Of a DNA stretch of 64,000 bases, positions 14,401 through 42,396 are shown piece by piece. Every line of letters starts with the position of its first letter. Position 1 is the first letter of the stretch. Below the pieces are notes generated by a model that was not told the DNA's origin, searched no databases, and worked only from the letters and a program-made list of their open reading frames with translations. Both the position numbers and the translations under genes were made by a program. This DNA comes from Minisyncoccota bacterium. GTDB taxonomy: Bacteria; Patescibacteriota; Minisyncoccia; Phycocordibacterales; JAQTLZ01. Where the stretch lies: contig JAQTLZ010000003.1 in assembly GCA_028714635.1 (NCBI GenBank), forward strand, positions 21,237 through 85,236, given 5' to 3'.

Positions 14401-16979
14401 GAACCGGAGGTTGAAAAATTAATTGAAGTTGAATCGATAAGTACCGAACCAGTGCCAACTTTAAGCGCGCCTTGGACCCAAAGATTGTTGGCAATGGTTG
14501 AAGTGCCGGTACCATTTACATTCAAAAGTCCCGCAAGAGTTGAACTTGCGGTAGCGCATGTGCCGACAAAATTTCCCGCGGTCAAAGTCCCAGTAAATGT
14601 TTTCGCGCCGTTGATCGTCTGCGCACCTTCGGTCATTACAAAATTCGCATCTGCTCCCGCGTCTGGAATAGTGTAAATATGAGCTGCGCCTTGTGCAGCA
14701 TTCGTGATTAATGTTTGATAGTCGCCTGAATTTGCAGTTGGGCCAAATTGCAGAACTCCAGACAAAGCGGATGAGGGATATAAACTTAATACTCCTTTAT
14801 TTCCAGTTGATGTTCCCACATTGAGATATGTCTCTACAGTTCCTGAAGAGATGGTCAACAGTTTTCCACTGCTTGGAGAAAGTGTGATGAGACTTCCGCT
14901 ACTTGGCACAATCGAATTCGCCTTGATACCGTTTGAACCGAAATCTTGCGCCTGCGAAGTCGCGCCGACAACCGCGCCGTTTGCAGTCAGATATGAACCG
15001 GCGGGTTGTTTGTTGTTAAAGGTATTCCAGTCGGTTGAGGAAAGTGTTCCTGTCGCGGAAGTTCCAGCGAGTCCGAGGGTCAAGGCCTGACCTGAAATAG
15101 TGAGACCATTTATGCTGTTGGTAAGGGTAACGTCGCCGGTATTAGTGCCGGAGAGATTTGAGGCCGACAAAGTTCCTGAGAACAATCCGTTGCCAATAAC
15201 GCTCAAAGCTTGTCCAGGAGTGGTTGTGCCGATGCCGACGTTGACCGCATTTCCTCCCGTGCCTCCGAGCACAAGAGAATTCGAAGCTCCGACAATTGCA
15301 TTGGCGCCGATTGCAGTGGCATTAGTGAGAGCAGAAGATGCTACGTCGGCATTGTATCCAATGAGAGTAGTGGAGCTACCAGTTATATTGGTAGCTCCAA
15401 CGTTGCGTCCAAGAGCAGTATTCCGCGAGCCAGTGGTGTTGTTGAAAAGTGCAGACTCTCCGTCGGCAGTATTGTTGGAACCCGTAGTGTTGCTGTAGAG
15501 GGATCCAAACCCGCTCGCGGAATTTTGTACACCAGTAGTGTTGCTGTAGAGTGCAGAGTATCCGTTCGCGGTGTTGTTGATTCCTGTGGTGTTACTCAAG
15601 AGTGCATTGTTTCCAGTGGCAACGTTGTAACTTCCTGTGGTGTTGCTAAAGAGCGCACCATACCCGTCAGCGGTATTACTGCCACCTGTGGTGTTATTGT
15701 AGAGTGCGCTGTCTCCATTTGCGGTATTTAGGGTCCCTGTTGAATTTAAGGAGAGTGCATAAAATCCGCTTGCGGTATTGCCATACCCGGTGGTATCGTT
15801 CCGGAGTGCGTAGTATCCGTTCGCAGTATTCTCGCTACCACTGGTGTTATTAAAGAGTGCATTGTATCCAGTCGCGCTGTTGTAGCTGCCTGTAGTGTTG
15901 CTGGAGAGAGCTTGGTATCCTAGAGCAGTATTGTAATTCCCCGTAATACTTGTATTCCCCGCCCCCACACCAAGCAAGGTATTGCCTGTTGCAGTCAAAA
16001 CATCGAGGACAGTATTTCCAGCAATTTTATACACTCCACTCACATTTGCGTTGCCAACAACATCAAGCATTTGCGAAGCCGTGGTGGTACCGATGCCGAC
16101 TTTGCCAGCAGAGAAGAAAAGAGTTGAGGTGCCCGACACTGCAGTGCCGGTCGCGCCATAAAAAGCTGCTTGTCCGGTTAATCCGGAATTCACTGTCCCA
16201 CTCCCGCCCGCCGTAATGCCAAGCGTAGAAGTCGCAACCCAAGCAGGCACTCCTGAAACCGAAGAAAGGACGTACCCTTCAGTTCCGATGTTTCGTTTTG
16301 CGAGAGAACTAGTCGTGTTTGCATAGAGAATATCGCCAACAGCATACGTGGTAGTACCAGTACCTCCGTACGCCACGCCCAAAGTACTTCCGTGCCATGT
16401 TCCAGAAACGACTGTGCCGAGCGATGAATAGGTCGCCGAAAGATTTGGAAAAGTTGAAGTTGCAGAAGTCGAAGTCGCCGTAAAATATTCTCCAAGAATT
16501 TGTCCGACGACAGTAAATTTCGCGAACGGAGTTGAAGTTCCAATTCCGTAATTCAAAGTTGATGGATCGATGTAAATATGTTCGACGGTACAATTCGAAG
16601 TCCCCGGCGCGCATCCTGGATCGAGCGTTTCTCCCGGAGCATACGGAGTAATCGGATACGAAGCGTACGCGGGAGTTGCAGTCCAAGAAAAAATCGAGGA
16701 CGCCATTGTTTCCAGTATCGAAGAAATTTGTATCGAGAAAGGCTGGAGCGTTTCTGAAATTTTTCCAGAAAGTGGGAACGCGTTGAACGCGGAAGTTCTG
16801 GAATCCGTGAACTCCCGAATCGCAAGATTTTTAATATCGAGACTGAAGGGAAAGCTCGATTTTTTTTGAAGAGGGGTGCTGTTTTCCGAGAAAAAAGGAA
16901 GCCGGTCCAAGACAGCTTTTGCAATCAAAATGACCGCAATTACGGAAGAACTAACCTTCGATAAAACTCGGGGCTTCAT
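2409..16979 (-). CDS. Giant secreted/surface repeat protein (4,856 aa) with a signal anchor, four Gly/Cys-rich beta-helix-like repeat modules capped by tail-fibre-like motifs, and a Pro/Thr-rich C-terminal tail
   Basis: Single uninterrupted ORF with an N-terminal hydrophobic segment (VIAVILIAKAV). It contains hundreds of ~14-aa repeats (NTxxGxxAGxxxTGxxN and GYCGVxGxxNxxIG). The cap motif '...DVASxALTNATAIGxNAIV...SxVLGG...GIGTxTP..ALxVxGN' recurs four times. The C-terminal tail reads TPTPTPSPEVSGG...PPPSDAPATP. Confidence 0.9.
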   Translation of the reverse strand: MKPRVLSKVSSSVIAVILIAKAVLDRLPFFSENSTPLQKKSSFPFSLDIKNLAIREFTDSRTSAFNAFPLSGKISETLQPFSIQISSILETMASSIFSWTATPAYASYPITPYAPGETLDPGCAPGTSNCTVEHIYIDPSTLNYGIGTSTPFAKFTVVGQILGEYFTATSTSATSTFPNLSATYSSLGTVVSGTWHGSTLGVAYGGTGTTTYAVGDILYANTTSSLAKRNIGTEGYVLSSVSGVPAWVATSTLGITAGGSGTVNSGLTGQAAFYGATGTAVSGTSTLFFSAGKVGIGTTTASQMLDVVGNANVSGVYKIAGNTVLDVLTATGNTLLGVGAGNTSITGNYNTALGYQALSSNTTGSYNSATGYNALFNNTSGSENTANGYYALRNDTTGYGNTASGFYALSLNSTGTLNTANGDSALYNNTTGGSNTADGYGALFSNTTGSYNVATGNNALLSNTTGINNTANGYSALYSNTTGVQNSASGFGSLYSNTTGSNNTADGESALFNNTTGSRNTALGRNVGATNITGSSTTLIGYNADVASSALTNATAIGANAIVGASNSLVLGGTGGNAVNVGIGTTTPGQALSVIGNGLFSGTLSASNLSGTNTGDVTLTNSINGLTISGQALTLGLAGTSATGTLSSTDWNTFNNKQPAGSYLTANGAVVGATSQAQDFGSNGIKANSIVPSSGSLITLSPSSGKLLTISSGTVETYLNVGTSTGNKGVLSLYPSSALSGVLQFGPTANSGDYQTLITNAAQGAAHIYTIPDAGADANFVMTEGAQTINGAKTFTGTLTAGNFVGTCATASSTLAGLLNVNGTGTSTIANNLWVQGALKVGTGSVLIDSTSINFSTSGSITTGTGALTLTPVAGQNLNIGLCTTGDFAVNTDQLYVDTSLARVGIGLMNPSQALDVVGNANISGGYGIGGTILFTSPGSGTGNIALGVCAGAAGVSGNYNFIAGQCAGSRSVTGSDNLLLGTFAGATTTGSRNVALGYYAAASTTGSENFIGGWHAGEFNTGSYNTFVGGCAGQHNTGLGNVFLGDQAGMYNSGDINNFMGNGAGFNNVGDYNVALGTYAGSDNTGDHNSFLGVSAGAQNTGSCNSIIGFCAGLSNTGSNNFIGGSCAGYNNTGSSTIILGDHAGFGNSGDNNFLLGTFVGATTTGSYNSAIGYYAAASTTGSGNSIFGPYAGYFSSAASSTIIGDHAGYNAGQIAEGGSNVIIGTCAGYYGVAGSCNFIGGACAWGDDESGTATGTDNIVLGSAAGYCGITGDKNFIAGYNAWGADSTGTNGQSNIVLGDSAGYNGITGNNNFVAGYNAGYAGVYGNNNSLLGPDAGGNWGSSRIGNYTTLIGRRAGYGGVCGSDNTLIGSCAGANWRFGTSGNDNLILGTCAGYGGIGGNQNTIIGDNAWGNDTTGAGTGDDNVVLGTQAGLCGIAGSCNTVIGVNAGLCGVAGDFNFIGGPGAWGDDESGQSGDQNVVLGYSAGLCGIAGSQNFIAGSSAWGNDVIGLTGGCNVVLGAGAGYSGIAGNQNSIIGYQAGYCGVSGSDNIFLGTQSGSCGFGGSRNTFIGYQVASSTQGGGTDNTILGSEAVAGGNINGQRNTILGYQAAFYGLNANDNTVLGTKAGFCGLNTAVQNNFIAGVEAWGADTTDTYGQYNTVIGYQAANSGLGRATGTGGKQGSWYNTIIGACAGANWGSTYAGQSNTILGSCAGYSGLASGADNNFIGGTSAWGGDTAGLTGSTNTVIGNHAGFCGVAGSSNTILGDYSWGGSCSLYAGTNNTVIGTNAGLCGICGSNNFIGGSCAWKNDTTGAGVGTDNVVLGTCAGYCGVAGSNNVIFGTNAGLCGITTSSNVVIGTSAGASGVFGSSNFIGGVGAGGVWNSGNNGTTNTILGAYAGAAGVGGSGNYIGGTCAAGNWQAGLPGGSNVILGNFAGFNGLYGSSNSVIGDHAGAGGVCGSDNFIGGSCAARNWTGGFCGSSNIILGDSAGFNGLYNGACYNTLIGYSAGACWQGGYGGANNTFLGTCAGYKGTCANNNFVAGTSAGACWGGGFCGNNNIALGTCAAFCGFYTGADYNTAIGFNAGASWNGGSAGNNNVILGTCAGYEGIVGSCNFIAGVCAGYDWSGGRTGYFNTIIGASAGACGVSGVANDIIGAGAGEHGVCGNDNTLLGFFAGWDWVGGRMGGNNTIIGPSAGACGLCGNGNSILGNYAAYYGVSGDFNFIGGACAGYCGISGYCNVILGHCAGYCGICGDDNFIAGTCVAGNWQSTYSGDFNTIIGHCAGYCGIFASDNIILGTCAGFCGVCGSCNIIIGSCVAANWQSGREGTQNIILGTGAGMNGISGSGNFMAGVNAGAGGTSGTNNVFLGSVAGNGDTSGSSNVFIGLNAGNANTTGGNNTFVGVSAGISNVCGSSLLLLGDGADVAVDGLIHSAAIGYNAVVGKDNAIVLGGACTFVGIGTSTPDHALDVNGNIKIEGGSNGLYFPDGTFIGTAVGGGSGMTAAGDLSFAADDDFSGSGKITFATNGLTPVTILNNGKVGIGTTTPSYDLDVVGDVNVSGGYFVNGVNFGGGFVGANNNVLLGYHAGYNGVCGSNNLLGGYETGGNWNGANSGSCNTIFGYRAGYCGICGTSNFVVGDSAWGDQRTTASTGNGNIVLGTCAGYCGIFGPSNFIAGVQTGACWQSGRTGACNTILGYQAGFCGISASGNVILGSYAGLCGVCGNVNTLIGNQAGANWVSGRTGTDNIILGTCAGFCGISGNNNFIGGCGAGYCGVCGSGNTLLGTNTGANWTSGFTGSNNLLLGNQAGFRGVSGSSNSLIGSCAGYCGVSGSNNSIIGSCAGYCGVCGSDNTLIGTNAGGNWQSGMGGVCNIIIGVNAGTCGISGNSNTILGLDAGYCGVAGSYNFIGGTYAGGNWQSGFTSTDNIILGSCAGYCGVVGYGNTIIGKEAGSNWQSGFGGSDGVLIGRRAGLRGFCGSDQVIIGTDAGACWQSGRASSYNVLLGHCAGYCGMQGGSNSIIGNNAWGNDISGTTGTDNVVLGTCAGYCGINGSNNLIGGTYAGANWQSGFTGSQNTILGYCAGYKGLCGWNTTVIGSCAGGNWQSGFTGSENTIIGICAGYCGLCGWNTTVIGSYAGANWQSGFTGGQNTILGYCAGYKGLCGWNTTVIGSSAGANWQSGMTGGDNTIIGTCAGYCGIDGYNNFIAGTEAGANWTDGFNGAYSTIIGHCAGFCGVCGNDNTLIGTLAGGNWQSGRTGINNTLLGYSAGYCGITGNYNALMGGNASYYGVTGDDNSIIGYCAGFCGVCGSNNFIGGTSAGGNWESGRGGQYNTVLGYCAGFCGIAGSSNFIAGTQAGFCGSSGVDNILIGTCAGWSGPSGNENIFLGTCSGYLTTSGSGNNTFLGYKAGATNTTGDNNLALGSGADVASGALTNATAIGHNAIVSSSCSIVLGGTGADAVNVGIGLTNPSYPLEVNGNIKISGTGNKLIFPDDSFFSTAAGGAGVGITSAGDLNFEADNGGAINFVTADGVSTTTKFYIANNGNIGIGTTTPGYALDVAGDVNVSGTFLVDGVDVSGNFVSANGNVILGDGAGLAGVPASNNMIMGYQAAADWQSGRTTGDKNTILGYQAGYCGNVGSNNFIAGMCAGYCGVYGDENVLLGANAGLCGVCGSYNFIGGFQAGADWTSSRTGACNTIIGYQAGFCGICAGQDGNILIGSYAGFCGVCGPGNTFIGQDAGSNWSTFCGSFNTAIGHQAGQNGICGIENLALGNLAWGASATGGDGNYNTAIGYKAAYAGICNTGNTVIGYQAGLGGLGGSYNTVIGANALSNFQNFTAGHTDNTILGTNAGNNGVCTDNSFIAGTEAGANWTNGLNSTYATLIGYRAGFKGLCGSDNTLIGSYAGGDWQSGSNGTDNVVLGTSAGFCGIEGDKNAILGFHAAYGGACGDRNTVIGYTAGLISLQGNDNFIAGSAAGFGGVCGDANFIAGQNAGGSWTSGRVSNRAIILGSFAGQYGISADDNILIGSNAGAQGVSGACNTLLGSQVGLLGVSGQENTIIGSQAGYNGVTGSSNAVLGVCAAYYSLTGSCNTILGTRAGLYGVCGTNNFIGGVCAWGQDTGGGTGNNNIALGTFAGRYGVSGNANAIIGTFAGAGTDGVDGSDNFIAGEYAGGNWQNGRTGSCNTILGYCAGLCGLASGACNNFIGGTCAWGNDTEGTGVGSNNVVFGTCAGYCGIVGNDNTVIGRYTGAFGVSGVQNVLLGDSVGYCGIQGSCNFIGGTAAWGNDNAGNGIGQNNVVLGTQAGYCGVVGFCNFIGGVCAWGNDITGAGDGTDNVVLGTCAGLCGVSGNYNYIGGFQAGADAVSGNSNIILGTCAGRTVSGNTNVIIGYAALVGSGVSNSVVLGNGALADQDNSIILGGIGASTSFVGIGTSTPPQALTVGDGTNQANVQVSNGWLCVDDNGDCSAATTAGTIYANSTSITSTDLAERYPTEDDELSAAEIVSLDLDNPVFVKTARRSENAPLLGIVSTKPGVELGGFGDNRFPNDRKVPIALSGRVPVKVNLEGGAISIGDRISLSSVAGVGKKASSNEDSVGLALEAFSGSYDSSDNTVLVFVENKQGAVSSSSITASVASSALSQVSDSVRGSFESLGIVMTDMISYVKNLAVERLTAIAGIFQSVETIDLKAKNAVVDNLTIKNSADVSKTGVVIYDRKTGNPVCVFTENGVLRSEDGDCADNVSSATPTPTVDATPIPSSTPLSDDGAGTGQATPTPEVSGGGDSSGTPTPTPSPEVSGGEEETTPTPTPAESPAESPEVTPTPDESGEVTETPAPEVSPEDTPPPPQEETPPPSDSTPPPSDAPATP
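7450..7810. repeat. About 3 tandem copies of a ~120-bp near-identical direct repeat inside the giant gene
   Basis: The unit CCGCTCTGCCAGTTTGCTCCGGCA...GTTGTGTTCCAGCCGCAGAGGCC... recurs at ~7450, ~7561 and ~7670. It encodes 40-aa repeats ...ILGYCAGYKGLCGWNTTVIGSxAGxNWQSGFTG... Confidence 0.8.
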
Positions 16980-32642: not shown

Positions 32643-32794
32643 CCCGTAGTGAAAAATGGCATTATTTGCTCGCCATTTCTATAGTTAAGCGAATAATTGA
32701 TAAGTATGTATTGTAAATCATTTTAATGTATCTCTATCTAAAATCACAAATCTCGCAAATGGGGAGCGATGCCATTTTCTACTACAGGATTCAT
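32638..32794. repeat. MITE-like element copy 2: the same terminal inverted repeats as copy 1, flanked by the direct repeat TTCAT
   Basis: IR-L at 32643..32662 (CCCGTAGTGAAAAATGGCAT) and IR-R at 32763..32789 (GGAGCGATGCCATTTTCTACTACAGGA). TTCAT sits at 32638..32642 and 32790..32794. The left CAT is the start codon of the GH1 gene. Confidence 0.6.
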
Positions 32795-32890
32795 AGAAAG
32801 ATTATAACAGAAATCTGTTTAGACACAGGGAAGAAAAACCTTGACCAAAGCCATAATTTTCATTATTATGTGCGCCTAGTTCTTTAGCAT

Positions 32891-32940
32891 TTTCGTCATA
32901 GCAGAAAGGCGCTTTAGGGCTCTTTTCTGCTATGACGAAA
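32891..32940. promoter_or_regulatory. Perfect 17-bp palindrome (TTTCGTCATAGCAGAAA-16 nt-TTTCTGCTATGACGAAA) 51 nt upstream of the xylose-isomerase-like gene
   Basis: Arms at 32891..32907 and 32924..32940. Candidate operator or 5'UTR hairpin. Confidence 0.5.
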
Positions 32941-32990
32941 CCATTGTGGATTTTGTCAGAGGCAAGGGAAAGGTAGAGGAGGAACGAAGT

Positions 32991-34298
32991 ATGACGCAGG
33001 AAAGAATAGTCAGACCGCAAAGAGTCTCACACTTTGCGTGCCAGTCGGTCTTTTTGACCCTAGGCAAGCAGGGAGGATTCAAGACGCTCGACGATTTCCT
33101 GAAGTTCGCGAAGAACGACTGCGGATTCGAAGCCGTCAGCATCCCGACCTGCCCGCCGCTCATCGACATGGCTCAAGCGAGCAAAAGCAAGAGCTACTGC
33201 GCCGATCTGCTCGGCAAGTACGAGAAACACGGCCTTCCGCTTCTGCGCCTCGAAGGCCATACGTCCACACAGTGCGTATGTCTCGATCCGTCACGAAAGC
33301 TGAAGTTCGGCCACTTCATGAGCCCGAAGTTCCGGAAGTTGAAGCATCGCCAAATCGAAAAGCTGGCCGTCAAGGAAGTCAAGAAAGCGATCGATGTGAC
33401 GGCGGCACTGGGTCTCAAACATCTCGTCGCGTTCTGCGGTGGGCGTTCGTTCGCCGTGGCACAAGCGAAATGGGCGGCGTGGCCGAAGTATTTCGCGGCC
33501 TGGTCGCTCGCGCTTCTGGCGTACAAATGGAACGACATCCTGGAATACGCGGCGGAGCGCGGCGTGATCCTCATGTTCGAGATCGGACATCCGGAAAACG
33601 ATCTCCTGACTGCACAAAACTGCATCGACTTCCGCAAGATGCTTACTCCGAAGGCCCGCAAAGCGTTCGGCGTGAACGCGGATCGGTCGCATTTCCGGAA
33701 CGTCGGGACAGATGAGTTGAATCACTTCCGACGCATATTGAAAGATGGGATCCCGATCACCAATCATTACAAGGACGGGATCTACGTCGATCGCGGAGAT
33801 GGAACGGCTTCGCCCTATGGCGGACTCGAGCCGTGGAGCAATTCCGCGGGGACGTTTGCCACAATCGGTATCGTCGGTGACGAGACGGCCCTGCAGGAGT
33901 ACAACGGGCTGATGGCAGAAGCCCACGCAACACAAGAAGGTGGAGTGGACATACACCACGAAGCCGAATGTGTGTTCATCCCTAACCCGAAACAGGGGAT
34001 GATCGTCGGGGCGCACAACTGCCGCGCACTCCGCGATGAAACACCGCTCATCCGGTTCAATAACGTAGCACCGGATACTGATCTCACTCCGTTCTCTACT
34101 ATGGGACGACGCGAACTCGTAGGCGCAGACGGAGCGCCGATGGTTTTGAAGCGGTGGGGCGGTGGGCCATTCGACAAGTTCGCTGATATCCCGGTTTCCG
34201 CACCGGAGCTTCTGTCGCTCTTGGCCGATGAACGGGATGGCTGTGTGGCAATCCTGGAACGAGCAGGATACACAGAGGCTGCCGCAATCAGAAACTAA
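32991..34298 (+). CDS. Xylose-isomerase-like TIM-barrel sugar isomerase (possibly a divergent xylose isomerase), GC-rich foreign gene
   Basis: 435 aa, with VAFCGGRSF (compare WGGREG) and ILMFEIGHPEN (compare FLIEPKP) motifs. GC is ~65% against ~42% in the flanks, and it has a strong SD GGAGGAGGAA 7 nt before ATG 32991 that is unique in the window. The track ORF begins earlier at 32946. Confidence 0.5.
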   Translation: MTQERIVRPQRVSHFACQSVFLTLGKQGGFKTLDDFLKFAKNDCGFEAVSIPTCPPLIDMAQASKSKSYCADLLGKYEKHGLPLLRLEGHTSTQCVCLDPSRKLKFGHFMSPKFRKLKHRQIEKLAVKEVKKAIDVTAALGLKHLVAFCGGRSFAVAQAKWAAWPKYFAAWSLALLAYKWNDILEYAAERGVILMFEIGHPENDLLTAQNCIDFRKMLTPKARKAFGVNADRSHFRNVGTDELNHFRRILKDGIPITNHYKDGIYVDRGDGTASPYGGLEPWSNSAGTFATIGIVGDETALQEYNGLMAEAHATQEGGVDIHHEAECVFIPNPKQGMIVGAHNCRALRDETPLIRFNNVAPDTDLTPFSTMGRRELVGADGAPMVLKRWGGGPFDKFADIPVSAPELLSLLADERDGCVAILERAGYTEAAAIRN

Positions 34299-34327
34299 AT
34301 CACGCTTGTTGCAAATATCGCAACAAG

Positions 34328-34365
34328 GACCACTGGGAAACACTCCCGGTGGTCTTTTATTTTTA
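34328..34365 (+). terminator. Intrinsic terminator after the isomerase gene, with an adjacent second hairpin at 34306..34328
   Basis: GACCACTGGG-AAACACT-CCCGGTGGTC 10-bp stem followed by TTTTATTTTTAT. Confidence 0.7.
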
Positions 34366-34371
34366 TCCCAA

Positions 34372-35664
34372 CTAATACTCAAGAGCCTGCTCCATCTTTT
34401 TTTCCGCAAGAATCTGTGGGATTCCATACGCAAGACGGTTCAAGGTAATAATTTTATCTTTTATACGTGAAGCATATTTTTCCGATTCAGGAGGAAGGCC
34501 GATGCCAGAGAAAGCAGTGCTCGTCTTTCCATCAATCATAAGTTTTATATAAAAATGAAAGCGAGGAAGCCCCAGAAAATCATCGACGGTCATCGGCTCA
34601 AATTCTTTCTCCAAAATCTCCGCGTCCTCAGCGCCAACTTCAAATGCAAGCATTGTGCCGATATTTCCAAGCACAGCTTTTTTTATCGTCTCCGGAAGTT
34701 GCGCTAAATACTGATTGGTAATGTGAATTCCCAAAGCATATTTTCGAGATTCACTCAGGAGGCTCGTGAATGTCTCAGTCGTGAAATTTTGAAACTCATC
34801 GACGTAAAGATAGAACGGCACGCGCCTATTTGCAGATTCATTTGCACGTCTTTGTATCGCGCCCTGAAGACGCGAAATGAGAATGAGACCGAGCATATGT
34901 GCATTTATATCCCCGATTTTTCCTTTTGAGAGATTCACCAAGAGAATTTTATTGCTGTTCATCAAGGCGTCAAAATTGAAACTGCTGGTGCGCTGACCAA
35001 TGATATTTCGCATCAGTTTATTGTTCATAAAATGCCCGAATTTCGAGAGGAAATAGTTGAGCATTTCACTCTTGTGAAAATCCGAAGTCTTCGCCATTTG
35101 TTTCGTCCAGAAATCAATAACCGTTCCGTCTTTCAATTCTTTCCGCTTCTTCATCTCAAATTCTTTATCCACGAAAAGCTTTGGAATTTCAAGAAGACTT
35201 CCCCCTTCCGGCCCCGCCATTACAGTCAAAGCAGCGTTTCGAAGCCAATGCTCGAATTGAGGCCCGATGATTCCAGTCTTTTCCGGGTCAAATAATTTAT
35301 AAAATATTTGGATGCATTCCCCCACCAAAAAATCTTTTTCTTGATCATCCCGTGCTTCCAAGAGATTTAATCCAAAAGGAAATTCCGTATCACTCGGATC
35401 AAAAAGGATAACATCTTCAAGCCTCTCTTTCGGAATATGTGAAAGAAGCCAATCAACGGATTCTCCGTGGGGATCAATAAAACAAACCCCATGACCCTCT
35501 TTTATATCTTGGAGACACATATTTTGGAAAACGGTTGACTTTCCAACTCCAGTCTTCCCGATCATATACATATGTCGAAGACGATCTTTCTCATTCATCC
35601 CGATGAGAGTGCGTCTGCCGTGATATTCATTTGCTCCGATGGTGATAAATGACATATTATTCAA
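34372..35664 (-). CDS. VirD4/TraG/TraD-like (DUF87/HerA-type) P-loop NTPase with no TM domain
   Basis: Walker A MYMIGKTGVGKST, Walker B-like FYLYVDEFQNF and a C-terminal TraD/TrwB-like segment. It is the last gene of a four-gene minus-strand operon. Confidence 0.5.
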   Translation of the reverse strand: MNNMSFITIGANEYHGRRTLIGMNEKDRLRHMYMIGKTGVGKSTVFQNMCLQDIKEGHGVCFIDPHGESVDWLLSHIPKERLEDVILFDPSDTEFPFGLNLLEARDDQEKDFLVGECIQIFYKLFDPEKTGIIGPQFEHWLRNAALTVMAGPEGGSLLEIPKLFVDKEFEMKKRKELKDGTVIDFWTKQMAKTSDFHKSEMLNYFLSKFGHFMNNKLMRNIIGQRTSSFNFDALMNSNKILLVNLSKGKIGDINAHMLGLILISRLQGAIQRRANESANRRVPFYLYVDEFQNFTTETFTSLLSESRKYALGIHITNQYLAQLPETIKKAVLGNIGTMLAFEVGAEDAEILEKEFEPMTVDDFLGLPRFHFYIKLMIDGKTSTAFSGIGLPPESEKYASRIKDKIITLNRLAYGIPQILAEKKMEQALEY

Positions 35665-35974
35665 AAAAAGTTAGGTCGAGCGTTTTTTCTGTAAAATAAT
35701 TCTCGTCCAATACTCGTTTTCGATTTTTCTTTGCTTCTTGAAGCTCTTTTTCTTTTTGGATGATAAGAGCAAATTCTTTTGCTTCCCGGCTTATCTTCTC
35801 GATAAGCGATTTCTGAAGAGGAATGGAAATATACTCGGAAAGCGAAGAAAGCATTTCTGTTTGCCGTGTATGCATTTTTTCAAATGAAGGAAATGCGAGG
35901 AGTTTCTCATCGATTTTTGCCTCCACCGAGCTCATCCCCAATTCCACTGAATGTAATTTTTCGTTTTTTCTCAT
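35657..35974 (-). CDS. Small (106 aa) coiled-coil hypothetical protein
   Basis: Start chosen at ATG 35974, 1 nt after the Clp-like stop, with an 8-nt overlap onto the downstream ATPase gene. K/E-rich heptad character. Confidence 0.35.
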   Translation of the reverse strand: MRKNEKLHSVELGMSSVEAKIDEKLLAFPSFEKMHTRQTEMLSSLSEYISIPLQKSLIEKISREAKEFALIIQKEKELQEAKKNRKRVLDENYFTEKTLDLTFFE

Positions 35975-35975
35975 A

Positions 35976-37640
35976 TTACTTTTTATTAAGCAAGGAACGA
36001 GCAAGAAGCGATTCACATGTCTCCTCAATAAATCGCTTCACAGGACGTGCGCCGAATCGTGGATCAACCATAGTCTTAATTCTCGCCTCAAGAAGCGCAG
36101 GATCAATATCGAACTGCACTCTATGTTTGGAGAGTCGTGCTTCAATTTTCTTGATTTCAAGCTGTGCAACTTCGACAAGGCCTTTGAGAGAAAGCGGATT
36201 GAAAATAAGAATACTGTCGAAACGATTCAAAAATTCAAGGCGGAAAGTCTTCGCAAGCGCTGGAATAATCTTTTCTTTGAGAAAGGCTTCGCTTCCCACA
36301 TCATTTCCCTTTTCAAATTCTTTGAGAATCTCATCCACAGCAATATTCGAAGTCGCCATAATGATAGAGTGGCGAGCATCGACGGTTTCATTCTGGCCAG
36401 ATGTGAGCCGCCCATCATCAAGAACTTGAAGAAAAATATCGAATACTTTCGGGTGTGCCTTCTCAATTTCATCGAGGAGAATGAGACTGTGAGGTTCTTC
36501 CCGAAGCGCGTTGGTAAGTGCTCCTCCACTTTCATACCCGATGTACCCCGCTGGAGCGCCGATAAGCCTCTGCACAGTGTGATCCTGCCCGAATTCCGAC
36601 ATATCAAAACGGATAAATGTTTCGCTTCGGCCGAACATATTTTCTGCGATAAGTTTTGCTGTTTCGGTTTTCCCCACCCCAGAAGGGCCGAGCATAAGAA
36701 ACGAGCCCAATGGTTTATTCGGATTTCGAATTCCCAATTTCGCTCTCTGGAGCGTCGCCGCAATCTTCTTTATTGCTCCTTTTTGGTTGATTATTCTTTC
36801 GCTCAAAACAGACTCAAGATTTTTGAGCACATGAAGCTCATCGGGCTTCAATTGCGCTTTAGGAATTCCAGTTTTGCCCGCAACGACAGAAGCAATAATG
36901 TCATCCGAAAGCTCTTTCTTCCCAAGCGACACAGCATAGGCAAGACTTTCATCAAGAAGACTGACTGCTCCCCGAGGCAATTGCCCCAGTTTGGGAAATC
37001 GTTCCACAAAGCCCACAATTTCTTTGAGCACCGTATCCGAAACCAAAACATGTTCCCCATTCAGATTTGGTAGTGCTCTTTCAAGGATTTGCGCGTACTC
37101 AAGCGAAGTTTGATTCTTCACTTGTATCGTTTCAAAAGATTTAACAAATGCAGGATGTTCCCGCTCGAGCCATGCATATTCATTAGGTTCAAGGGCCAAA
37201 ACGATTCGCACGTGCGACTTTTTCAGAAGTATCTGATAGAGGCGAAAAATATTTTTAAGGAGTGAACTGTTGCCAAGTACCGCTCTTCCAAAATTATCTA
37301 TAAAAACTACAGATGGAGGCAAGGTCGTCAGTGCTTGCTCAAAATATTTTGCATAGGCTTCATTTTCAAGCTCATACAAATGCTCCGCATCAAGTTGGAT
37401 AAATTGGAGCGAATCAAACTCTTTCTTCCCTGCCATCTTTTTTATCCAGCCATAAACAAGGGTAGTTTTCCCGATGCCATTTGAGCCAACAACGAGGACA
37501 TTGTTGCTTATCTTTCGAGTCACGACACGTGTAAGCCGTTCCATTTCCTCGGTACGGCCAATAACGTTCGGCAATTTGCCCGAGCGAACTTCTTTTCGAA
37601 GATCAAAATATTCAATTTTTTTAAAATGAAAATCAGTCAT
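35976..37640 (-). CDS. Compact two-ring Clp/Hsp100-family AAA+ ATPase (D1+D2) with no N-domain, M-domain or ClpP-docking loop
   Basis: D1 has IGRTEEMERLTRVV...VVGSNGIGKTTLV with a degenerate Walker B, VVFIDNFG. D2 has LMLGPSGVGKTETAK, LILLDEIEKAH and GARPVKRFIEE. It is 554 aa against ~750-870 for ClpA/B/C, and has no IGF/IGL tripeptide. Confidence 0.8.
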   Translation of the reverse strand: MTDFHFKKIEYFDLRKEVRSGKLPNVIGRTEEMERLTRVVTRKISNNVLVVGSNGIGKTTLVYGWIKKMAGKKEFDSLQFIQLDAEHLYELENEAYAKYFEQALTTLPPSVVFIDNFGRAVLGNSSLLKNIFRLYQILLKKSHVRIVLALEPNEYAWLEREHPAFVKSFETIQVKNQTSLEYAQILERALPNLNGEHVLVSDTVLKEIVGFVERFPKLGQLPRGAVSLLDESLAYAVSLGKKELSDDIIASVVAGKTGIPKAQLKPDELHVLKNLESVLSERIINQKGAIKKIAATLQRAKLGIRNPNKPLGSFLMLGPSGVGKTETAKLIAENMFGRSETFIRFDMSEFGQDHTVQRLIGAPAGYIGYESGGALTNALREEPHSLILLDEIEKAHPKVFDIFLQVLDDGRLTSGQNETVDARHSIIMATSNIAVDEILKEFEKGNDVGSEAFLKEKIIPALAKTFRLEFLNRFDSILIFNPLSLKGLVEVAQLEIKKIEARLSKHRVQFDIDPALLEARIKTMVDPRFGARPVKRFIEETCESLLARSLLNKK

Positions 37641-37651
37641 GGAAATCTAAA

Positions 37652-39535
37652 TTACGCGGCTCGTCTCATTGTGATACCGCTCGACGGATCACTTTCGGTA
37701 TAGGTTCGTTCCGCTTCCAATTCGTCAATATTTGATTGCGGCTGTCTTCCGTTCACTCCGCTTAGAACTCCCGCTTTTTCTCGAGATTCACCAAAACGAG
37801 CATCCCTCTCCTGCCCTGAAAAGATATCGATTGTATTCGCACCCGTCTCGGAAATGTTTTCTTGCGCCTGGTCTCCTTTCCTTTCATTCTCAACCACGAT
37901 TCTCTTCGCTTCCGGACGAGAAAACTGAACATACGGAGAAGGAATAAGGACTTCATCAGAAATTTTATCCTCTTTTTTGTCTTCTTCTATTTTCTTCTCA
38001 ATAATGCCCGGCTTGTCTGCATTTTTTTCCGCCACTTCTCTTTTCTCAGGTGTTTCCTCCGGTTCTTTTCTTTCTTGTTTCTCTATTTTTATCGGCTTTT
38101 TCTTTTCTGCAATGACAACCTGTTTTTCCTTCTCCTTTGGCAGATCTTTTTTCTCCGCTTCTGGTACTATCGGAGGTTTATCTGGGGTTGTTATTTTTTC
38201 AAGAATAAACTCTTCTTCCCAAACTTCTTTGAGAGGAACAATTTGCTGTTCAATTTTATCCTCAGCAAAAGTATCTCCACCTCCTTCCGGATCTTCTGGC
38301 TCTGGCTCGGGAATGCTCACCAACTCAATTCCGGACGGCTGTTCTTCCTCGAAAATTCCTGCCTTTAAAGTCTCCTTAGCTTCCGTGCTATCCGTACCAG
38401 CTCTTTTACTCAAATCGCTTGGAATAAGGATATCTTCTCCTTCTTCTTTGAAAACGACTGGCTCCCGTTTCTCGTCTGCTTGGAAAACTTCTGGCGCTAA
38501 CAGCTCTTCAATAATTTCTTCTTTCTTTTCGGAATGTACTTCTACCACTTCGGATTCTTCCTCTGACTCCCGCTCCAAACGCTCTTGGCTATTCACGCGA
38601 GCGATTGCTTCGAAGTTTTCAGTTTTTTCTGCAAAAATCTCTGCTTTTCCTTGCACTTTCTCTTCCGGTGCTTGCCTCTCTGGCGCTTCTCTAGGCGAGA
38701 TATTTATAATCGTATTCAAATGAGAAGTTTCAAATAACGGAGCGATAGAGATTGAGTCCACCGCATCCACTTGCGTGTTTTCTCCATTCGTCCCATTCAC
38801 AAGAGATGCGTCGGAAAAAATTCCTGAAGCATTTTCCATCCCCATTTGCTCTCGCAATTCGGCATTTACATCAATTACGAGCGGCCCGCTATCGTTATCA
38901 CTATCTCCATCAAAAGATGTGCTTACTATTTCTGAATCATCATATCCATCATCAGTCTCTTCTCGTATTACAAGTTCTTTTTCAGGATGTAAATAATAGG
39001 AATATTTAATCTCATTATTCTGTCCTTCAAGCCTGACAAATGTAATATGAGTGCCTTTTTCATCAACAAATTTGAAAGTGTAGGAACCTTTTTCGGCCAA
39101 GCCCTTTCTCATCTCCTCATCCGCCTTTCGAAAATTTTCATTCTCATTAACAGAGCCTTTCCCTGTTTTATCAGTCAAACACTCATCCGTTGCTAAATCA
39201 TAAATTTTCCCATCTGCTTCGTTAAAATACGTACTGTCGCCGGATATGTTCACCTCATCATCCACCCCCCATTCCTTACTTTTCCCTCCGTGTTCTTTCG
39301 CGATGACTGCCCGAATATCCCCATCTCTCCACTCTCCTCTCTCGGCTTTTCGCGCCTCCCTTTTCGCTTCTAAATTTTCTTGTTTAAGCCTTTCTTCATT
39401 CGCAACATCTTCGGGAGACTTGGTATCCTCTCGAGAATCTGCAGGAACTCTCTCGACAGGAGGAATATCCTCAAGTACGGGAGCTTGAGGTTTATCTATG
39501 AAATCTTCTGGTATTTCTTGCAGTGTTTCTGGCAT
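37652..39535 (-). CDS. Highly acidic (D/E-rich), largely low-complexity hypothetical protein
   Basis: About 627 aa with long E/K/D-rich stretches and no TM or signal peptide. The track ORF uses TTG 39553; ATG 39535 (MPETLQEIP) is more plausible because 39553 abuts the terminator U-run. Confidence 0.45.
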   Translation of the reverse strand: MPETLQEIPEDFIDKPQAPVLEDIPPVERVPADSREDTKSPEDVANEERLKQENLEAKREARKAERGEWRDGDIRAVIAKEHGGKSKEWGVDDEVNISGDSTYFNEADGKIYDLATDECLTDKTGKGSVNENENFRKADEEMRKGLAEKGSYTFKFVDEKGTHITFVRLEGQNNEIKYSYYLHPEKELVIREETDDGYDDSEIVSTSFDGDSDNDSGPLVIDVNAELREQMGMENASGIFSDASLVNGTNGENTQVDAVDSISIAPLFETSHLNTIINISPREAPERQAPEEKVQGKAEIFAEKTENFEAIARVNSQERLERESEEESEVVEVHSEKKEEIIEELLAPEVFQADEKREPVVFKEEGEDILIPSDLSKRAGTDSTEAKETLKAGIFEEEQPSGIELVSIPEPEPEDPEGGGDTFAEDKIEQQIVPLKEVWEEEFILEKITTPDKPPIVPEAEKKDLPKEKEKQVVIAEKKKPIKIEKQERKEPEETPEKREVAEKNADKPGIIEKKIEEDKKEDKISDEVLIPSPYVQFSRPEAKRIVVENERKGDQAQENISETGANTIDIFSGQERDARFGESREKAGVLSGVNGRQPQSNIDELEAERTYTESDPSSGITMRRAA

Positions 39536-39551
39536 GAAAATAAATAAAGAC

Positions 39552-39577
39552 AAAAAATCCTTCTCGATGAAAGAAGG
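39552..39577 (-). terminator. Intrinsic terminator immediately upstream of the acidic-protein gene
   Basis: Minus strand reads CCUUCU-UUCAUCG-AGAAGG followed by AUUUUUUG. It lies 17 nt before ATG 39535. Confidence 0.6.
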
Positions 39578-39745
39578 TGGCGAAGAGGCGCAAGCGCGTA
39601 CTCTTTAATCTCACATCCTTTACTCGAGGACTGACGAAACATACTTTCGTGCGCGGTATTCGGACTTCCCTCTTTCGAGAGTTACCGTAGCGGTACTGTG
39701 CCGGAATTACACCGGACTTCCCCAACGCAACGAAATAATTTTTCA
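39552..39745 (-). ncRNA. Candidate structured leader / riboswitch-like attenuator or small RNA of unknown class
   Basis: A ~190-nt minus-strand segment with moderate GC and several local hairpins (CCGG-UGUAAUU-CCGG, CUCU-CGAA-AGAG, ACGAAA-GUAUG-UUUCGU). It carries two copies of GGGAAGUCCG and ends in a terminator just before a gene start. No convincing protein-coding potential. Confidence 0.35.
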
Positions 39746-39895
39746 AAAACAACAATCAAAACCGGAAACGTATAAGGATATTATATGTCACAGAGAAACA
39801 CGTGCAAGAGTGGATTACTACGCACAGCACACATTAAAATAAAAGCTAGGGAAAAATTTTTAAAGCTCATAAAATAAGGAGATTCCTGGAATTAG

Positions 39896-40780
39896 CTAAG
39901 AACACATCTCTTCAATCACTCCGTCCGTTAGATCATTATTACTAGGAAAAATCTGTGTGGCCCCAACTTTCTTTGCAATTGCAAGATAAACAGATTGTCC
40001 AACGGCAATATTGTCGCAAAACGCCGGATCTTTCGGATACATCTTTTTTAATTCATCGATTGGTGTTCGCCTTAATTTCTGGACATAATCAGAAAAACCA
40101 TCCGGAGAAAAAAGCATGGTGTGCGCAGAAAATGCGCCTGGTGTAAAAGATAACTTAAGAGGAGAACTAATTAATTCTACGAAATGCAAGATTCCAGTGA
40201 CAAAAATAATATCTGCCTTTTCGGTTATAATCATTTCCGCCTCTAAATACTTATCGAGACTATCCCAATCAATAGCGCCATCACCCCGTAAAAATTTTCC
40301 CTTCAAAAATTTAACTCCAAAAGGGAATTTATTAAAGCTTTTTAGATCTTTCTTATCTCCAAAAACTAATTCTGTACTTCCTCCGCCAATATTTACTGCT
40401 GCAAACTGGATTTTTGATGGAATCACATTAACAAACCCTTTATAGAGATAAAGAGTTTCTTTCTCTTGAGAAATAACCTCTGGCGTCACAGAAAGAATGT
40501 CCTCAACCATTCTACAAAACTCGGGAGCATTTTTTGCTTTTCTCAAAGCCTCTGTGCCAAGGACTTTTAGCATTTTCACGCCTTCTTTTTTATTTCGGAC
40601 CAAAGCAACCGAAAGAAGCTCTGAAGTTCTTTGAAATGCCTCAGGAGCAATATTTTCAGCTACACCGAGACCAACATCGGAATATCGTTCAAAATGAATA
40701 AGTTTTTTAGGACCCGGTTTTACTTCAAAAATATAATGTTTGAGACTTTGGGTTCCGATATCGATGATGGAGATTTTCAT
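39896..40780 (-). CDS. Ppx/GppA-family phosphatase (exopolyphosphatase / pppGpp phosphohydrolase fold)
   Basis: MKISIIDIGTQSLKHYIF matches the Ppx/GppA N-terminal (I/A)IDLGSNS motif. ASKHA fold, ~294 aa. Confidence 0.65.
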   Translation of the reverse strand: MKISIIDIGTQSLKHYIFEVKPGPKKLIHFERYSDVGLGVAENIAPEAFQRTSELLSVALVRNKKEGVKMLKVLGTEALRKAKNAPEFCRMVEDILSVTPEVISQEKETLYLYKGFVNVIPSKIQFAAVNIGGGSTELVFGDKKDLKSFNKFPFGVKFLKGKFLRGDGAIDWDSLDKYLEAEMIITEKADIIFVTGILHFVELISSPLKLSFTPGAFSAHTMLFSPDGFSDYVQKLRRTPIDELKKMYPKDPAFCDNIAVGQSVYLAIAKKVGATQIFPSNNDLTDGVIEEMCS

Positions 40781-41205
40781 GAATTGAAGTAAACTCTTTT
40801 TTTCTGGTAATTTTCTAAAATAACTTTCGATCCCGAGAAAAGAGGCTCTGGCAGATTATCGAGCGGATACCAATCCCATTCTCCGCTTTTTTCTGGCTCC
40901 ATCACCCGCGGCTCTCCGCTTGACCAATCTGCCGACATCCCGATATGAACATAATGCCGAGGGGGATATAATTTCGTCGTACCAACCGAAACAAATCGAA
41001 TATTTTTTATTTCAATATCGCATTCCTCTTTCGTTTCGCGCATTGCGCACTCTTCAAACGTCTCCATATACTCCAAATGTCCCCCGGGAAATTGATATTC
41101 TCCATTGCCAAATTGCCCTTTTCTTTTAGCTAAAAGAATTTTTCCGTCTTTGAAAACAATGACACCCATCCCCACTCTGGGTTTTAATTCTTTTGAATCA
41201 ACCAT
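40777..41205 (-). CDS. NUDIX hydrolase
   Basis: Nudix box GGHLEYMETFEECAMRETKEECDI (GX5EX7REUXEEXGU). Confidence 0.8.
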   Translation of the reverse strand: MVDSKELKPRVGMGVIVFKDGKILLAKRKGQFGNGEYQFPGGHLEYMETFEECAMRETKEECDIEIKNIRFVSVGTTKLYPPRHYVHIGMSADWSSGEPRVMEPEKSGEWDWYPLDNLPEPLFSGSKVILENYQKKRVYFNS

Positions 41206-41218
41206 AAAAAATGTTTTA

Positions 41219-41764
41219 TTAAAACTTCATATGGAACCAATCAAGCCCGTAAATGTCGTTTATAAGCGTTCTTTCTCCTTTAGCCCACGTTTTATTTTTT
41301 GAAAGACCGAGAAGCACGATTGCTTCTTTCACGTGTTCTTCACTGCTCCCTTCGATTTCCAGATACGCTGGCATTTTTGGATACTGATCGATATCAAATA
41401 CCCAGTCTTTCAAAACAAAAGAGATCCTATCTTTTTCCTGATGGCCGTAAAGCTCGAGACCAAATTCTTCAAAAAGATCGGCTAATTTTTCGGATTCCTC
41501 AATATTAAAATTAATTTCTTTGTGCTTGCGAGCAGTTCCCAAAATTTCTGATTTGGCTTTCCACGTCACTTCACGTTTCCCTTCTGAATTCTGCCTAATT
41601 CGAAGAAACCACGGATCATCACCTGCATGAGTAAGTCCCTTCGGACCAAACCAATCCACAATCAGACGAGTCTCTTTGGTTCTTTTTGCTCCAAGTTTTG
41701 TGAGTTTCGCGATCAAATCCCCGCTGTCGATATCCAAAACCTTCGTCTCAATTTCATGCGCCAT
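41219..41764 (-). CDS. CYTH-domain protein (triphosphate tunnel metalloenzyme / class IV adenylyl cyclase-like)
   Basis: N-terminal HEIETKVL is the CYTH ExExK signature; ~180 aa. Confidence 0.65.
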   Translation of the reverse strand: MAHEIETKVLDIDSGDLIAKLTKLGAKRTKETRLIVDWFGPKGLTHAGDDPWFLRIRQNSEGKREVTWKAKSEILGTARKHKEINFNIEESEKLADLFEEFGLELYGHQEKDRISFVLKDWVFDIDQYPKMPAYLEIEGSSEEHVKEAIVLLGLSKNKTWAKGERTLINDIYGLDWFHMKF

Positions 41765-41769
41765 AAAAG

Positions 41770-42396
41770 TTAAGAGAAAATTTTAGCCACCGTGTCCGCA
41801 AAAGAAATATCCTTCAGCATGTCCCTTTTCCAACTCTGAACGAACTTCGTAAGAAACTTCTTCGCAATCTTGTCTTTCATGCCTTGTATCATTTTGATAA
41901 AAGTCGAGCTGATGAGCTTTACGTCAGATTTCATGAATTTATTGGCATACATTTTAAAATGCACAGCCTCTATATAATCAGCAATTTTTGCGATCCGCGA
42001 TTCATCTGATTCAAAAGCTTGTTCTTCTTTTAAAAGATCTGCAAAATATCCTTTCTGTGCACCAAAAAGACCGGAAAGATAGCGCTGATTTTCTATTTCA
42101 AATTTCTTAGCGTGCTTATAAGCTTCGGGATTTGCTTTCCTGTATCGCATAGAAATATCGCCCCCAAAGAGTTCGCCCAGATCATGCACGAGCGAAAGTT
42201 CAAGAACTTTTTTTATGTCGATCTTTGCACCTTTTGCATTAAGAGAAGCGGCGATCTGCCATGCAAGCATTGCTACCAAATATTGATGCTCTGCCAAATT
42301 CGAAAGCGGCATGTCTCCGCCATTTACGGCATACCCATATTGCGGCTGTTTGCGGGTGAGTTCCAAAATATGGAAAAGTTTCGTAAGGTGTTCCAT
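41770..42396 (-). CDS. HD-domain phosphohydrolase (YfbR-like 5'-deoxynucleotidase type)
   Basis: H...HDLGE metal-binding motif (SLVHDLGELFGGD); ~208 aa. Confidence 0.65.
   Translation of the reverse strand: MEHLTKLFHILELTRKQPQYGYAVNGGDMPLSNLAEHQYLVAMLAWQIAASLNAKGAKIDIKKVLELSLVHDLGELFGGDISMRYRKANPEAYKHAKKFEIENQRYLSGLFGAQKGYFADLLKEEQAFESDESRIAKIADYIEAVHFKMYANKFMKSDVKLISSTFIKMIQGMKDKIAKKFLTKFVQSWKRDMLKDISFADTVAKIFS

Follow-up and report, generated by a model that had tools for sequence, protein, structure and literature searches.

The window analyzed here is a stretch of 64,000 nucleotides from contig JAQTLZ010000003.1 of a Minisyncoccota bacterium, and on its minus strand a structured leader (39552-39745) precedes a cassette of four genes. 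This leader belongs to a known class, the cobalamin riboswitches, and it is found at the head of the same cassette in each of the ten Paceibacteria loci that we have compared. With confidence we assign it to the cobalamin (coenzyme-B12 type) riboswitches and place it in the 5' leader of a Candidatus Pacebacteria operon of four genes, where it most likely functions as a transcriptional OFF switch. Although the riboswitch itself is of a known kind, the link that it provides between an uncharacterized four-gene cassette and the supply of B12 is new; no published report of it was found in the open literature (subscription journals were not covered).

Identification of the leader element

The leader is housed in a minus-strand gap of 342 nt between a Ppx/GppA-family gene (39896..40780, Pfam PF02541) and the gene for an acidic protein that starts at ATG 39535. 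An earlier note on this DNA, made from the letters alone, had described a GC-rich minus-strand segment at this place, and the composition agrees, with a GC content of 0.47 for 39552-39745 as compared to 0.34 in the rest of the gap and 0.37-0.43 in the flanking genes. The note had also read the layout of aptamer, terminator and gene as that of a riboswitch. Layout and strand are right and the 5' boundary is off by at most 2 nt, but the class that the note could not match is given by the Infernal/Rfam scan that it had proposed. When the whole 64-kb window is scanned against Rfam 15, family RF01482 (AdoCbl) matches 39747..39606 on the minus strand with 60.0 bits, relative to a gathering score of 50, and an E value of 1.6e-8 for the window, covering positions 1-149 of the 149 in the model, and this is the sole Rfam match above a curated threshold in the window. 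Cobalamin was missing from the classes that the earlier reader had listed (TPP, SAM, c-di-GMP, glycine, T-box, SRP and RNase P), and the ligands suggested at that time (nucleotides, ppGpp, cyclic dinucleotides) are unsupported for an element of the cobalamin class, for which the predicted ligand is a corrinoid.

The decamer GGGAAGTCCG (also given as GGGAAGUCCG), first noticed as a twice-repeated sequence, does occur exactly twice in the 64-kb window, on the minus strand at 39713-39722 and 39661-39670, where 0.08 copies are expected by chance. It is not a functional repeat, however, as each copy is a different part of the aptamer. The first corresponds to the conserved junction GGGAAGUC.GG together with the 5' strand of a helix, the one that follows the first junction in the Rfam annotation. 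The second copy belongs to P6, on its B12-box side, and reads GAGAAGUCCG in L001 and L002, the loci of two diverged homologues of the acidic protein. The parts of the leader are as follows.

39606..39747, minus strand: aptamer of a cobalamin (AdoCbl-type) riboswitch, P13 hairpin included, from RF01482 and covariation in 8 and 61 distinct relatives
39646..39734, minus strand: closing helix P1/P2, 5' strand 39734..39724 paired with 3' strand 39657..39646 in the cmscan alignment
39691..39695, minus strand: L5 loop UACCG (consensus UCCCG), one half of the kissing loop, from the cmscan alignment and covariation with L13
39655..39670, minus strand: B12-box region GGGAAGUCCGAAUACC, which holds the second decamer and aligns to the AAGUCAGG...C core that is conserved in the Rfam consensus
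39616..39630, minus strand: P13 hairpin UCCU-CGAGUAA-AGGA with the L13 loop at 39626..39620; P13 (39628..39616) doubles as the 5' half of the predicted antiterminator
39552..39577, minus strand: intrinsic terminator CCUUCUUUCAUCGAGAAGG, stem CCUUCU(U)/(A)AGAAGG with a loop of approximately UCAUCG at 39577..39559 and a U-tract at 39557..39552; a hairpin with U-tract is kept at this position in 9 of 10 loci, with stems of differing sequence
39780..39807, minus strand: promoter-like boxes read from the sequence, putative -35 TTGCAC 39807..39802, 16-nt spacer, putative -10 TATAAT 39785..39780

The folding energy of the whole leader is unremarkable, with a z score of -0.71 for the minimum free energy (MFE), and folding energy was therefore dropped as proof of structure; the structural claim is made because of the covariance-model match and covariation. 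For a covariance model the Rfam structure was imposed on the three closest aptamers, and in the resulting alignment of 8 cassette riboswitches 93.3% of the cells are paired, with double changes in 24 of the 37 pairs, relative to 37-53% pairing in slid controls; none of 500 shuffles reaches the observed values. A metagenome scan with the lineage-specific core CACAGTRCCGCTACGGTAA provided 80 further loci. For 61 distinct sequences 91.6% of the cells are paired, as opposed to 34-48% when slid, every helix is supported, with compensatory changes in 27 of the 37 pairs, and the number of compensatory cells is 387, compared with 122 +/- 9 in shuffles. The alignments were fitted to the model, so that the pairing values are somewhat inflated, but the lower slid controls and the many distinct pair types speak for a real fold signal. 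The two checks that the earlier note had called for, the Rfam scan and a search for covariation among homologous intergenic regions, proved to be decisive, and both have a positive outcome.

The same alignments establish several details of the aptamer. Compensatory double changes occur in 10 of the 11 pairs of P1/P2 (61-sequence alignment), the AGUCCG of the B12 box is invariant in all aligned relatives and the L13 motif CGAG[U/C]A is nearly universal in the lineage. A peripheral extension of P6 tells the AdoCbl-selective class I from class II. A short one, CUCUC-GAAA-GAGGG, with a GAAA tetraloop, is present and covaries; the window scores best with RF01482, but two of the cassette loci do so with RF01689. 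Between the window and L002 the leader is 90% identical and the coding DNA approximately 75%, so that the leader is more constrained than the proteins.

A kissing loop between L5, of consensus UCCCG, and L13 is the hallmark through which binding of a corrinoid is communicated to the expression platform (PMC10327014). In the present lineage L5 is U[A/G]CCG and L13 is CGAG[U/C]A, which allows five pairs around a single bulged A. The second position of L5 and the fifth of L13 form A-U in 8 and G-C in 66 of the 74 distinct riboswitches for which both loops are readable, with no mismatches.

Linkage of the riboswitch to a four-gene cassette

The riboswitch and the cassette are linked throughout the Paceibacteria loci considered. 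The genes of the cassette in the window, and the hairpin that follows them, are the following.

37652..39535, minus strand: gene 1, acidic protein of 627 aa (25% D+E), no match in Pfam, NCBIfam or PADLOC
35976..37640, minus strand: gene 2, double AAA+ ATPase of 554 aa related to ClpA/ClpB/ClpV, without N- and M-domains (Pfam AAA_2 2.7e-57, ClpB_D2-small)
35657..35974, minus strand: gene 3, protein of 105 aa without transmembrane segment, conserved C-terminus ...VLDxxYFTxKxLD, from the sequence
34372..35664, minus strand: gene 4, soluble VirD4/TraG/HerA-like P-loop ATPase of 430 aa, short form (Pfam DUF87/TrwB_AAD_bind/TraG-D_C)
34325..34357, no strand assigned: GC-rich hairpin of 14 bp between the convergent ends of gene 4 and a plus-strand TIM-barrel gene, with which the operon probably ends

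That these genes form an operon, as had been claimed before, is well supported. They are separated by 11, 1 and -8 nt, no convincing internal terminator was found within the cassette and 9 other loci show all four in synteny, and we expect them to be co-transcribed. Seven of these loci (L083-L089) were fetched through the VirD4-like protein and not through the RNA. All seven encode an acidic protein of 295-714 aa without a Pfam match, a ClpB-like AAA+ protein of about 555 aa, a protein of 80-105 aa and a VirD4-like protein of about 427 aa, and the genes flanking the cassette differ in each.

In all 10 Paceibacteria loci the cassette is preceded by a cobalamin riboswitch, which reaches the gathering score in 8, falls below it in one (L085) and was recognized only by eye in one (L089). 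In the gaps before the cassette RF01482 scores 60.5 bits in L001, 58 in L002, 52.6 in L083, 65 in L084 and 58.2 in L087, and RF01689 scores 37.9 bits in L086 and 39.6 in L088; the L085 element is below threshold at 33.2 bits, with an E value of 5e-4 from the custom model. Four more independent contigs, found from the RNA motif, carry a gene with the acidic tail followed by AAA+ and VirD4 genes. The AAA+ gene and the tail-bearing gene occur only with the short form of the VirD4-like protein, in 10 of 10 cassette loci versus 0 of the 80 loci from distant bacteria of the Candidate Phyla Radiation (CPR) among the matches listed. The latter 80 have a longer, membrane-anchored VirD4-like protein and no full cassette.

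Some further observations concern individual loci. The riboswitch-like core at 2660..2800 of L089 is split by extra GC-rich hairpins, of which one sits in the first long hairpin, within its loop, and one in the P6 extension, and three metagenome copies have similar large insertions in the same long-hairpin loop. In L001 (GenBank JAQTSY010000005.1, 10001..10084) the deposited start of gene 1 (P0002) is a GTG inside P13 that reads through the terminator, while the true start, MDEPAP..., is 28 codons downstream, and the annotation is corrected in this way. A neighboring minus-strand gene call in L088 is over-extended as well and overlaps the riboswitch.

Expression platform and the direction of control

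Promoter-like and terminator-like elements bracket the aptamer. The TTGCAC/TATAAT pair of the window is kept in L001 with a spacer of 16 nt and in L002 with one of 18 nt, and -35/-10-like boxes, particular to each locus, are seen throughout at 20-45 nt ahead of the aptamer; the boxes of the window were skipped by a generic scan, the -35 box agreeing at 3 of 6 positions. Transcription is predicted to start approximately 25-30 nt upstream of the aptamer. The intrinsic terminator that had been placed ahead of the downstream ATG is indeed there, as CCUUCUUUCAUCGAGAAGG followed by AUUUUUU, with 16 nt from the last U to ATG 39535. Directly before gene 1 a hairpin with a run of 5-7 U's is found in 9 of the 10 loci, and its stem differs by lineage (CCUUCU/AGAAGG, CCCUCUC/GAGAGGG, CUCCGC/GCGGAG or AUUCUGC/GCAGAAU).

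With its own promoter-like boxes and terminator the leader would be expected to give a short transcript upon termination, and in the window it is overlapped by an open reading frame (ORF) of 87 aa, so that one could imagine a stand-alone, trans-acting small RNA of some 190-220 nt, which the earlier note had entertained, or a leader-peptide attenuator in place of a ligand-sensing cis element. We regard either as exceedingly improbable. The element matches a curated riboswitch family above threshold and preserves the tertiary contact of that family, it has a terminator/antiterminator platform and in every case it directly precedes the same cassette, in the same orientation, while the flanks differ. 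Stop codons interrupt the leader in every frame of L001 and L002, and because the overlapping ORF is broken in these relatives a leader peptide is ruled out.

How the platform of the cobalamin riboswitch would switch can be seen in the folds of the window, L001 and L002. In all three the free MFE fold has no terminator pairs at all. Instead, P13 (CUCGA..AAAGGA, 39628..39616) pairs with UUCUUU..UCGAG (39575..39563), that is, with the 5' arm and loop of the terminator, to form an antiterminator. Enforcing the aptamer and P13, on the other hand, produces a 7-bp terminator in each. We read the element as an OFF switch because P13 and the terminator coexist in the bound state while the alternative pairing of the unbound state destroys the terminator. 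In the mechanism that we propose, binding of a corrinoid would lock the aptamer (39747..39606) and L5 (UACCG) would kiss L13 (CGAGUAA, with one bulged A), holding P13 closed; the CCUUCU/AGAAGG hairpin with its U6 tract would then form and RNA polymerase would stop 16 nt before the start codon. Without B12, P13 would pair with the 5' arm and loop of the terminator, the resulting antiterminator would allow the operon to be transcribed and the genes would be expressed under B12 scarcity.

The OFF polarity, as modeled here, has to be compared with that of an activating ON switch, in which B12 binding would promote read-through and the cassette would be made when B12 is plentiful. An activating corrinoid riboswitch does exist, in front of A. 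halodurans cobT (PMC10327014), and the polarity in the present case comes from predicted pairings. In the activating type, however, P13 and terminator share sequence and are mutually exclusive, whereas the present P13 (39630..39616) does not overlap the terminator (39577..39559) and both form in the constrained fold, and an unbound alternative that destroys the terminator is the architecture of a repressing switch. Moreover, the sister riboswitches described below precede genes for B12 binders and uptake. Such genes are classically repressed by B12, and we consider an ON switch very unlikely.

Several observations weigh against the picture of a B12-responsive transcriptional OFF switch at the head of every cassette. 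In L083, L084 and L087 the terminator forms in free and constrained folds alike, and switching in these loci might involve either a competing helix other than the MFE antiterminator or kinetic control. The enforced bound-state folds are 9-12 kcal/mol less stable than the free folds, with the energies of the ligand and of the tertiary contacts uncounted. No Shine-Dalgarno sequence is visible before ATG 39535 in the window, which bears on translational effects. The L089 element is matched by neither Rfam nor the custom model and was recognized by eye only. The A-U group of the kissing loop may reflect a single or a few evolutionary events, and the search of the 64-kb window for enzymes that depend on B12 and for known B12 transporters was negative.

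A further alternative is that the element is a cobalamin riboswitch for which control is mainly translational, or through Rho or RNase, the hairpin and U6 tract being incidental or minor. The 3' arm of the hairpin, GAGAAGGA, is Shine-Dalgarno-like and is located 4 nt before an in-frame TTG (39553) in the window, many cobalamin riboswitches do act translationally (PMC10327014, PMC11260477) and the MFE folds show no antiterminator in L083, L084 and L087. Gene 1 starts at ATG 39535, however, and not at TTG 39553: L002 shares the start MPET... but has the TTG in another frame. The real ATG has no Shine-Dalgarno sequence. The retention of a stem with 5-7 U's in 9 of 10 loci, despite the differing stems, is predicted for a terminator and not for a sequestering helix. 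Mainly translational or Rho/RNase control is unlikely in our estimation, if less so than an ON switch, and we retain the transcriptional OFF switch in what follows.

Properties of the cassette genes

In the product of gene 1 a conserved N-domain (approximately residues 65-190) is followed by a middle that varies and, at the C-terminus, by a tail that does not, SDPSSGITMRRAA. In all loci 18-25% of its residues are Asp or Glu, and BLAST connects only subsets of the proteins, but every copy has the conserved tail, in the form SGITMRRAA, NGIIMRRAA, NGVTLKRAA, DGIILEMAA, NGITLRRAS, NGIRLTRNAA, GPITMRIAA, KGIRMRRAQ or NGITLKIAA. For the whole acidic protein a search of 5.8 billion proteins gives 3 homologues, each from a metagenome-assembled genome of Candidatus Pacebacteria, which places the window in a CPR/Patescibacteria genome, and an exhaustive HMMER search with the N-domain returned 6 cluster representatives among 1.84 billion, none of which is informatively annotated. 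Two of the six are giant proteins in which the N-domain recurs, 8 times in one of 1882 aa (P0125) and 5 times in one of 1549 aa (P0126), the second of which also has 12 Calx-beta stretches. This hints at a repeat module that is extracellular or exposed on the surface. An AlphaFold2 model of the N-domain, calculated from an alignment of 3 sequences, is unusable, with a mean predicted local distance difference test score of 37.

Gene 1 also changes rapidly. When the DNA of the window is compared with that of L001, the flanking genes reach 89-95% identity, whereas gene 1 (10085..11920 in L001) can be aligned only over 38814-39352 of the window (77%) and the gene 1 proteins are 45% identical. Gene 1 evolves much faster than its neighbors, which suggests diversifying selection or recombination in the acidic middle and fits a protein that is exposed to a host or competitor.

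Gene 2 is present in 10 of 10 cassette loci with identities of 59-97%. Its NCBIfam scores are 388 bits for ClpB (cutoff 1232), 350 for ClpV (885) and 348 for ClpA (993), and the protein aligns to ClpA over residues 174-720 only, short of the full Hsp100 architecture and of an equivalog score. No ClpP loop of the IGL/IGF type was seen on reading the gene 2 sequence by eye. The gene 3 protein is poorly conserved overall. Gene 4 is 70-77% identical across Paceibacteria at the protein level; its Pfam matches are marginal (DUF87 25.4, TrwB_AAD_bind 23.2), its NCBIfam scores are 40.8 bits for TraD (cutoff 366), 36.6 for CedD (600) and 33.7 for CD1115 (250), and its sole match in the PDB is HerA with an E value of 0.007. 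A hydropathy scan finds no transmembrane anchor in this protein, unlike the long Microgenomates form, which has one.

None of the four cassette proteins reaches a curated family cutoff and none has a predicted membrane segment. The gene tables of the 10 cassette loci contain neither VirB4 nor other channel genes of a type IV secretion system nor a relaxase. A reading of the cassette as a defense system was rejected, PADLOC having returned only generic matches of the AAA+ and HerA type.

Connections to B12

The window operon has no recognizable B12 gene by Pfam, NCBIfam or tblastn, Pfam identifies no B12 enzyme among 10 further large ORFs of the window, and tblastn finds no NrdJ, adenosyltransferase, DUF4430 or DUF6580 in the window, L001 or L002. 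Relatives suggest nevertheless that the source organism uses B12. In L084 a class II ribonucleotide reductase (RNR; NrdJ) is immediately upstream of the riboswitch. In at least 12 of the distant loci among those listed, of a Microgenomates type, the VirD4 gene is just downstream of a class II RNR and a PduO-type cobalamin adenosyltransferase, and in 7 of 12 such loci there is a cobalamin riboswitch between, detected with RF01689 at the gathering score in L047, L049, L063, L068 and L072 and with the custom model only in L055 and L056.

In metagenomes the commonest target of the same riboswitch subtype is a small DUF4430 gene, the usual order being class II RNR, adenosyltransferase, riboswitch and DUF4430. 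B12 binders of the transcobalamin type have DUF4430 as their C-terminal domain (PMC4350170). Other metagenome targets are proteins of 540-660 aa ending in ...LIFWGTP.., proteins ending in ...FGF and DUF6580 membrane proteins. From this survey of the targets of sister riboswitches the cassette is therefore read as one arm of a B12 regulon of which B12 capture is the other arm.

Two families were noted beside these riboswitches. One, of 537-659 aa and ending in ...(L/S)LIFWGTP(G/T)Q, is the first ORF after the riboswitch in L105, L106, L119, L122, L131, L132, L150, L153, L154 and L165 and is often followed by a DUF4430 gene. The other is a family of 375-480 aa without a Pfam match, with an SPPG(W/P)xG motif and a Cys-rich, zinc-finger-like C-terminus, which neighbors Microgenomates riboswitches (L072 5269..6396; L068 4519..5817, minus strand; L063 5023..6465, minus strand; L069 468..1334) and is a candidate member of the B12 regulon. 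BLAST shows no homology of the acidic protein of the window to the genes beside Microgenomates riboswitches. L072 and L069 further contain group I intron matches above the Rfam threshold (15025..15225, plus strand, 66.5 bits, and 7094..7287, minus strand, 67.5 bits, respectively) that are unrelated to the riboswitch.

The variability of the Microgenomates loci raises the question of whether gene 1 alone is tied to B12, with the AAA+, small and VirD4-like genes having housekeeping roles and being merely downstream. There the neighbor of the riboswitch may be DUF4430, DUF6580 or one of several unrelated proteins of 375-700 aa, and it is inverted relative to VirD4 in two loci; five loci with NrdJ, adenosyltransferase and VirD4 have no riboswitch at threshold, and the VirD4-like protein is a core gene across the CPR. 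In Paceibacteria, by contrast, the genes are tightly packed, no internal terminator among them is convincing, all four change genomic context together and always with the riboswitch in front and, as described above, the AAA+ and tail-bearing genes accompany only the short VirD4 form. A connection to B12 through gene 1 only therefore seems to us rather doubtful, although it has to be taken more seriously than the alternatives for the mode of control.

If all four genes are controlled by the riboswitch, their expression under B12 limitation would suggest a role in acquiring cobalamin or in bypassing the RNR. CPR bacteria are not known to make B12, yet they encode a B12-dependent RNR and an adenosyltransferase, and it is plausible for this reason that B12 supply limits their DNA synthesis. 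One can speculate that the cassette handles the acidic protein by way of its tail, through unfolding and hand-off, within a response to B12 starvation. As a tentative proposal, which we put forward as possible and not as probable, the cassette would be a Paceibacteria-wide machine induced by B12 starvation in which the ...GIxMRRAA tail is recognized, the AAA+ protein unfolds the substrate and the VirD4/FtsK-type ATPase exports or delivers it, the purpose being to obtain host cobalamin or to bypass the B12-dependent RNR, for example by acquiring DNA or deoxynucleotides. If true, the 'orphan' type IV coupling proteins in the CPR would for the first time have a physiological role.

Few predictors of what a gene does are as reliable as a riboswitch, whose ligand names the pathway. 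The present one labels four genes without a function in every Paceibacteria locus examined, including an 'orphan' VirD4-like ATPase, and an operon that is apparently repressed by B12 and begins with a fast-evolving gene offers a testable entry to how epibionts obtain, or economize on, a cofactor derived from their host.

Other features of the window

Upstream of the leader a minus-strand operon (39896..42396) encodes an HD/YfbR-like 5'-deoxynucleotidase, CYTH, NUDIX and Ppx/GppA proteins, all of nucleotide-phosphate metabolism. This operon is kept in L001 and partly in L002, and it is not beside the cassette in the other Paceibacteria loci. On the opposite side of the cassette there is a GC-rich island at 32643..34370 (57% versus approximately 42%) that contains a 450-aa, xylose-isomerase-like TIM-barrel gene (32946..34298, plus strand, PF01261), where L001 has a Trp-repressor-family gene and a gene for 152 aa; the island is probably a recent insertion or horizontal transfer. 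A single ORF of 4,856 aa occupies 14.6 kb of the minus strand (2409..16979) and coincides with higher GC (about 0.50) and a strongly negative GC skew. Giant proteins are common in CPR genomes.

Comparison with known systems

The element shares with the members of Rfam clan CL00101 (RF01482 and the related RF00174 and RF01689, AdoCbl-II) the B12 box, the helices of the four-way junction, L5 and the L5-L13 kissing loop. Its structural oddities are limited to the short, GAAA-capped P6 extension and to a lineage-specific core variant, CCGCUACGGU, for which most bacteria have CCGCCACUGU. What sets it apart are the genes downstream, which are outside the usual targets (btuB/btuFCD, cob/cbi, metE and nrd).

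For the corrinoid riboswitch of Priestia megaterium metE a repressing model has been proven by compensatory mutagenesis (PMC10327014). The platform logic is common to both, with the kissing loop stabilizing P13 and the terminator forming as a result, while the model for the present element is predicted from folds and applies to the clade of the window only. The kissing loops differ as well, CCG/CGG in P. megaterium (PMC10327014) and UACCG/CGAGUA with a bulged A here.

A 2025 survey of Patescibacteria counted 5,713 VirD4-like homologues of type IV coupling proteins in 2,918 genomes, only 148 of them near virB4, and raised the possibility that such homologues have been 'exapted for other functions', mentioning neither riboswitches nor cobalamin (PMC12102498). 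Gene 4 belongs to these VirD4-like homologues encoded away from virB4. The Paceibacteria form differs from the coupling proteins in that it has no membrane anchor, scores far below the curated cutoffs and is coupled to an AAA+ protein and an acidic protein with a conserved tail. In type VII secretion the targeting module consists of the FtsK-like ATPase EccC, the AAA+ protein EccA and substrates with C-terminal signals. The cassette resembles type IV and type VII modules in its trio of a variable acidic protein with a conserved basic tail, a cytosolic AAA+ protein and an ATPase of the FtsK/VirD4/HerA superfamily, but the homology seen is that of the P-loop superfamily and the cassette has no membrane channel component, all four of its proteins being predicted to be soluble.

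The B12 riboswitch of the M. tuberculosis ppe2-cobQ-cobU operon (PMC11260477) is translational and depends on an upstream ORF, PPE2 is unrelated to the acidic protein and that operon keeps cob genes, of which the cassette has none. It is nonetheless the nearest published parallel, an OFF switch that precedes a member of a variable, secretion-associated family whose function is uncertain, and not a classical B12 gene.

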